Program-made: the position numbers and the translations under genes
Assembly (NCBI GenBank): GCA_951406725.2
Contig: CATOCA020000001.1
Location: 5,766,001-5,830,000 of the forward strand
Length of the DNA stretch: 64,000 bases
Direction of reading: 5' to 3'
Source of the DNA: Octopus vulgaris
Lineage: Eukaryota
The notes under the pieces: model-generated
The model's input: the letters and a program-made list of their open reading frames with translations, nothing else
What the model was told of the DNA's origin: nothing
The model's database searches: none
Shown: piece after piece, positions 9,837 to 9,991 of the stretch
Numbering within the stretch: position 1 is the stretch's first letter
How the letters are laid out: each line of letters opens with the position of its first letter

Positions 9837-9991
9837 TCCCTAACTGCCTCATGCAGTGGTGTGTCTCCATCGTTGTTAACCACATTGGCATCGATGCCAT
9901 TGTGACCCAACAACAGCTCGACAGTGTGAAAGTATCCCTGCGAACAGGCCAAGTGCAGCGGTGTTCGACCATTTAAACTTCGAGGATTCAC
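9837..9991 (-). CDS. Exon C of ankyrin gene, left copy (VNPRSLNGRTPLHLACSQGYFHTVELLLGHNGIDANVVNNDGDTPLHEAVR[E])
   Basis: 155 nt, polypyrimidine acceptor ...CTTTATCAG|, donor |GTAAGT, phase 0 to 2, two TPLH motifs. This frame is not in the ORF track. Confidence 0.92.

Follow-up and report, generated by a model that had tools for sequence, protein, structure and literature searches.

The 64,000-nt stretch of the Octopus vulgaris genome analysed here (the window; G000:C31:5766001-5830000) contains two copies of a short ankyrin exon, exon C, and raises the question of why this exon differs so much more between the copies than the introns on either side of it. Copy A exon C (9837..9991, minus strand) encodes 1.5 ankyrin repeats and runs from phase 0 to phase 2, and its counterpart in copy B lies at 50730..50884 on the plus strand; each is 155 nt long, is bounded by AG and GT and has an open frame. 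A first-pass annotation had reported 20 differences between them (~13%), about 4-5 of these synonymous, with 13 of 52 residues replaced, and our recount agrees: there are 20 differences, pathway counting over the 51 whole codons gave 4.5 synonymous and 13.5 non-synonymous changes, and the replacements affect 12 whole codons plus the split 52nd codon. Nine of the 13 (8 + 1) fall at ankyrin positions 1-3, 10 and 14, as had been described, the hypervariable repeat positions of copy A exon C being 1-3, 5, 10, 13, 14 and 16. The upstream intron flank (9992..10160, minus strand) differs at 2 of 169 positions, identical to the earlier count, and the downstream flank (9617..9836, minus strand) at 7 of 220, where fewer than 10 over ~220 nt had been noted. 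Two caveats entered with that annotation also stand. The values of pS and pN for the pair (0.119 and 0.117, pathway counting over 51 whole codons) give a ratio of about 1, and some 155-column windows of the A-B intron alignment contain 24-30 differences, near 3499 and 6266-6500; the pair alone is therefore weak evidence. Consensus errors, which had been named as a possible source of the differences, are ruled out by run contigs that match the letters of both copies exactly, with 0 other letters over 9946-10006 in run X1, which may be the assembled sample, and over 50739-50817 in run X8.

A genome-wide collection of paralogues, as the first-pass annotation had proposed, places copies A and B in a family of about 60. 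DNA and protein searches of the genome gave loci L001-L066, among which 60 exon C copies share splice flanks and form a lineage-specific cluster expansion, with 44 on the 12.0-Mb contig C31 and 16 on ten other contigs; the six more distant loci were left out of the set. Nearly all of the 60-nt splice flanks match at 55-60 of 60 bases, and a palindrome or a special relationship between A and B is ruled out because all family copies are equally close in their flanks. After exclusion of five copies (frameshifts, a stop, a lost donor), 55 intact copies remained, 53 of them distinct, and by this measure the 20 differences between A and B are ordinary (mean 23.0, sd 5.8, 53 copies). Matches to exons A, D, E and the death domain lie near at least 24 of the 44 C31 exon C copies, the match lists giving lower bounds, and some genes carry tandem repeats of phase-compatible exon pairs. 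RING and death-domain exons on C31 come in several discrete types, variously combined behind the same variable front end. Eight of the 16 copies outside C31 lie within 0.3 Mb of the ends of chromosome-scale contigs (L032, L019, L048, L044, L053, L051, L059 and L060, on C2, C4, C6, C7 and C9). Another large family, related to this one and likewise of ankyrin-RING-death-domain type but having longer ankyrin exons, accounts for dozens of matches over about 12.8-30.2 Mb of G000:C29 (for example L089-L100, L122-L130 and L167-L183), and long ankyrin arrays are found on C9.

Named relatives are proteins of Octopus vulgaris, O. sinensis and O. bimaculoides, mostly labelled 'MIB2-like'. In a profile search of 1.84 billion representatives, all 20 clusters that we looked up among the 150 matches listed were from Octopus, a sample that does not show the family to be absent from other cephalopods; it appears so far only in Octopus. 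In one public model, P0061, family exons C-E are attached to a leucine-rich-repeat protein, probably a gene-model fusion. We found no published description of the family: the word 'ankyrin' is absent from the main texts of PMC10700109 and PMC9068888, and PMC9334734 has nothing on the family, while gene-family tables in the supplements of the first two and of the MIB1 paper (bioRxiv 2024.03.01.582834) may list the expansion.

Across the family, nucleotide diversity (pi) in exon C is 0.14, versus 0.024 and 0.023 in the nearest 150 nt upstream and downstream. We fitted site models to the 53 distinct intact copies with our own codon code, which reproduces the IQ-TREE M0 likelihood, using branch lengths fixed from M0 and naive posteriors. 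M2a was preferred over M1a with a 2dlnL of 158 and an omega of 4.1 on 28% of sites, the selected codons being 6, 7, 9, 14, 17, 18, 20, 25, 26, 39, 41, 48 and 51. The likelihood ratio test (LRT) is robust to codon frequencies (186 with F3X4), to the tree (212 on the intron tree) and to the model pair (147 for M8 vs M8a), so that the class of sites with omega > 1 for which a search over paralogues had been suggested does exist. Since the exon and intron trees have just 2 splits in common, we ran neutral simulations with recombination, in which every 1, 5 or 17 codons had an independent genealogy. In all 17 runs the LRT stayed at or below 56.7, as against 158 observed, so a recombination artefact is insufficient as its cause; simulated codons had at most 9 variants, versus 13 in the data. 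A tree-free count gave the same picture, with 7-13 variants at ten exon C codons and more than 6 at none of 265 intron triplets.

Silent sites within the exon are largely quiet. Median pi at the four-fold sites of exon C is 0, 14 of the 18 have pi < 0.08, and those adjoining hypervariable codons are mostly invariant (completely so at codons 8, 10, 15, 19, 49 and 50). The remaining four are variable (pi 0.24-0.59), all of them near the hairpin clusters, and mean pS in the exon (0.154) exceeds intron diversity, which suggests that some old variation hitch-hikes. CpG hypermutation is at most a minor cause, accounting for 16 of 70 variant letters at hypervariable codons, and among the 53 copies the CpG at codon 11 is altered in just 1. 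It had been proposed early on that the exon might be resisting gene conversion instead of evolving fast. The introns are indeed homogenised, but the excess in the exon mostly changes amino acids (14 of 18 four-fold sites with pi < 0.08), and resistance to conversion is part of the same process as diversifying selection, not a competing account. Selection for distinct binding specificities, originally suggested from two exons, is thus supported family-wide by codon models, the recombination null and tree-free counts, and we consider it well supported and highly probable. No two of the 53 copies have the same set of 11 binding residues.

Exon C is one of three variable exons. Exon A gave an LRT of 198 with an omega of 9.6 (24 of 30 fetched sequences, from 42 matches) and exon B an LRT of 61 with an omega of 6.2 (18 of 22 sequences). 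For the later exons, namely D (12 sequences), E (21), RING (13) and death domain (7), the LRT was 7.5 or less in sets of 7-21 top matches, each confined to a single type and so leaving out between-type divergence; being small and within-type, these controls are less powerful. The family thus combines positive selection on a ligand face with an effector end that is constant within types. When the three variable exons are taken together, selection is called at 22 of the 28 codons that occupy repeat positions 2, 3, 5, 10, 13 and 14, compared with 7 of 126 others (P=2e-15), and these are the positions that were randomised in an artificial ankyrin library (PMC3308923). In an AlphaFold2 (AF2) model of P0119 (pLDDT 86), selected sites sit in the hairpin loops and on helix 1, as judged from secondary structure. 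Two or three selected codons, at repeat positions 21 and 22, map to helix 2 instead, outside the classical face.

The variants are reshuffled between copies over short distances. Linkage between common exon C variants decays within about 10-30 nt, r2 falling to 0.05 by 11-30 nt, and all four gametes occur in 88% of variant pairs, to which recurrent mutation contributes. Of the 27 exon C sequences from O. sinensis, just 6 have a match here that differs by no more than 2 amino acids, one of these being the copy B variant.

The family proteins are ankyrin-repeat proteins both by profile (Pfam Ank, E 5e-14) and by their stack of helix-loop-helix units and hairpins (Pfam, AF2, Foldseek), and the ankyrins are followed by a RING (zf-C3HC4_3, PF13920) and by a death domain (PF00531), an immune-type signalling domain that scores above cut-off in P0025, P0045 and P0050. 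The linker between RING and death domain consists of short repeats with TQT/VQT-like motifs (L069:3537-3602, L069:8784-8834; linkers of P0050 and P0074). Full-length members start straight at ankyrin helices, which argues for a cytosolic protein, and nothing points to a secreted toxin. No NACHT or NB-ARC domain was found in Pfam scans of six members, which sets them apart from NLR/STAND proteins.

Among the Foldseek matches listed, none exceeded the MIB1 ankyrin domain (8v0e) in query TM-score (0.54). A search for longer fused relatives returned generic ankyrin proteins alone and no MIB, so we took MIB2 from the genome itself. In the octopus MIB2-type gene, on G000:C26, splice positions and phases agree with those of exons A, D, E and RING of the family, and identity is about 50% over D, E and RING. 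By score, each of the 39 distinct RINGs in the family is nearer to the first RING of that gene than to the coiled-coil RING at its C terminus; exon boundaries, identity and RING scores together indicate homology to the first RING and the ankyrin array of MIB. Exon C could not be paired one-to-one with any MIB2 exon, its splice positions being ~4 codons off those of the MIB2 exon most like it; in phase it agrees with exon A. The genome contains 10 matches to the MZM/REP substrate domain MIB_HERC2 (PF06701), but C31 has none, and the domain was absent from Pfam scans of six members; the C-terminal coiled-coil catalytic RING was not found either, the family having a single RING of first-RING type and then the death domain. 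On these comparisons the family is derived from MIB2, keeping the first RING rather than the catalytic-type one. In MIB1, ligase activity resides in the coiled-coil RING3 alone, with the E2 UbcH5B, RING1-2 being inactive with UbcH5B, and the concave ankyrin face is highly conserved (bioRxiv 2024.03.01.582834). Ligase activity of the family RING is accordingly doubtful, to judge from its kinship, and the hypervariable concave face of the family is the opposite of that of MIB1. The family thus resembles Mind bomb (MIB2, MIB1) in its rear ankyrins, extended ninth-repeat region and first RING, whereas relative to MIB it has lost the substrate domain and the catalytic RING, gained a death domain, diversified its ankyrin groove and now numbers about 60 copies.

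The two window copies look incomplete when read against this architecture. Copy A (minus strand throughout) has a start exon encoding N-cap helices (30400..30477), which ends in phase 0, and a variable ankyrin exon B (13831..13984, phase 2 to 0). Exon A is absent at the junction of (CAT)n and TC-rich repeats at 26414..26442, where a twin locus keeps a ~430-bp island containing it; the frame is consequently broken, with the start exon in phase 0 and exon B in phase 2. A 12.4-kb (CAT)n array (14055..26414) fills the intron above exon B; the exon B-C block is flanked by such long arrays (7377-9199 and 14055-26414), and a similar array stands beside exon A of the twin. Exon C is followed by a small exon of 37 nt (6884..6920) and by exon D with constant ankyrins (221..433), and no exon E, RING or death-domain exon was found in the next 50 kb. 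Copy A is likely a relic or misassembled. Copy B (plus strand) continues from exon C into a 37-nt small exon (51862..51898), exon D with constant ankyrins (56586..56792) and exon E with the last, MIB-type ankyrin (60259..60434), and then, beyond the window, into a RING exon (C31:5832058) and a death-domain exon (C31:5843986). No exon A or exon B was found upstream, and copy B is headless in this assembly.

The region at 27.5-50.8 kb of the window is 92-98% identical in long blocks to the twin at C31:8.885-8.915 Mb, and the head-to-head layout is common to both (window 27500-50800; twin G000:C31:8885001-8915000); about 1150 nt comprising copy B exon C and its flanks are identical to the twin at G000:C31:8914966 (L012). 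Long open frames at 45578-47892 (plus strand) and 4645-5750 (minus strand) resemble by eye remnants of retroelement reverse transcriptase/endonuclease. Spliced transcripts of the family are seen in runs that are only guessed to be RNA: X12 and X15 have contigs in which exon C is linked to the small exon by a GT..AG joint, related joints occur in X8, and no such joint was seen in X3, a guessed DNA run, none of these joints being assignable to a single copy.

We favour, if only somewhat above the other readings together, the interpretation that this is an ankyrin-RING-death-domain family with binding-face codons under strong diversifying selection and homogenised introns, whose intact members are intracellular non-self sensors signalling via the death domain. 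Exon C forms part of the variable front end of this octopus-expanded family. Non-allelic gene conversion between copies would flatten introns and framework while dealing out new combinations of binding residues, which selection would keep, and each protein may use the concave groove formed by its front repeats to bind a target of its own. The constant rear ankyrins, RING and death domain would then signal to death-fold adaptors, leading to cell death or NF-kB, as established death-domain biology suggests, and partial copies such as A and B may still donate exon variants. We infer the immune-sensor role. A bolder form of the proposal, which we hold tentatively, pictures a germline 'natural DARPin library' of dozens of MIB2-derived genes in which gene conversion over short tracts, with partial copies as donors, recombines the binding residues. 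Such genes would supply intracellular sensors of pathogens in an antibody-like repertoire, signalling by way of interchangeable RING and death-domain modules, and would form a class of receptor undescribed in animals.

The groove might instead serve a self/non-self or cell-identity code, in neurons, gametes, allorecognition or the suppression of selfish elements, with variants recognising fast-evolving octopus proteins. Such a code would leave the same signature of selection, and the developmental role of the MIB2 ancestor and the apparent restriction to Octopus suit it; a death-domain output and the position of half of the off-C31 copies near chromosome ends are nevertheless a better fit to defence families, and fast turnover between sister species argues against stable wiring, making this reading rather unlikely. 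About as unlikely is a family of variable-substrate E3 ligases acting as restriction factors, whose ankyrin groove captures foreign proteins for ubiquitination by the RING and destruction, the death domain being secondary. The architecture is like that of variable-adaptor ligases such as fish finTRIMs and the F-box and MATH-BTB families of nematodes, a RING has been retained, and some RING types end in Cys-Pro-x-Cys-Arg, as active RINGs usually do. Set against this is the kinship of all 39 RINGs with the first RING of MIB2 and not with the coiled-coil RING, RING3 in MIB1, which there is alone active with UbcH5B (bioRxiv 2024.03.01.582834). The reading without positive selection, in which introns were recently homogenised, the exon was merely spared by conversion or is prone to CpG mutation and the site models are misled by recombination, or else the copies are in decay, can point to an overall pN/pS near 1, the scarcity of splits common to exon and intron trees, an LRT of up to 57 from recombination alone, intron patches as diverged as exon C and the incomplete window copies, yet it is largely refuted and very improbable given invariant four-fold sites beside hypervariable codons, the small CpG share (16/70; codon 11 in 1/53), a nearly invariant framework with 55 of 60 frames intact and the same variable repeat positions in three different exons.

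Returning to the sensor interpretation, its closest working analogues are the fungal ANK-NLRs and DARPin libraries, though the family is not an NLR and is less than a complete Mind bomb. In Podospora Pa_3_8560, a fungal NLR with ANK sensor repeats, the inner helices and hairpin loops of the concave ANK face are under positive selection and concerted evolution has been suggested (PMC4986451), and both features are matched here; in contrast to it, the octopus proteins are without NACHT/NB-ARC, carry their ankyrins N-terminally, and are diverse between genes, exon by exon, not among the tandem repeats of one gene. Artificial ankyrin libraries (DARPins) likewise set diversity at positions 2, 3, 5, 10, 13 and 14 into a fixed framework (PMC3308923), whereas the octopus family is natural, spread over many genes, shuffled by exchange, fused to RING and death domain and variable also at positions 1 and 16.

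Several further gene families offer parallels with the octopus genes, differing from them in fold and output. finTRIM, F-box/MATH-BTB, lettuce RGC2 type I and snake-venom PLA2 genes are expanded clusters with selection on the binding domain, and in RGC2 and PLA2 the introns are more alike than the exons; to our knowledge none of them combines a death domain with ankyrin repeats of MIB origin.

The family is obscured by public labels such as 'MIB2-like', 'ankyrin' and '26S proteasome subunit 10-like', which also imply a ligase activity that its RING may lack. A conserved Notch-pathway ligase has here been recast as a diversified binder, evolution having converged on the positions that engineers picked for ankyrin libraries. 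Immune recognition in cephalopods is poorly known, and the family offers a concrete, testable candidate for a receptor repertoire in cephalopod immunity.
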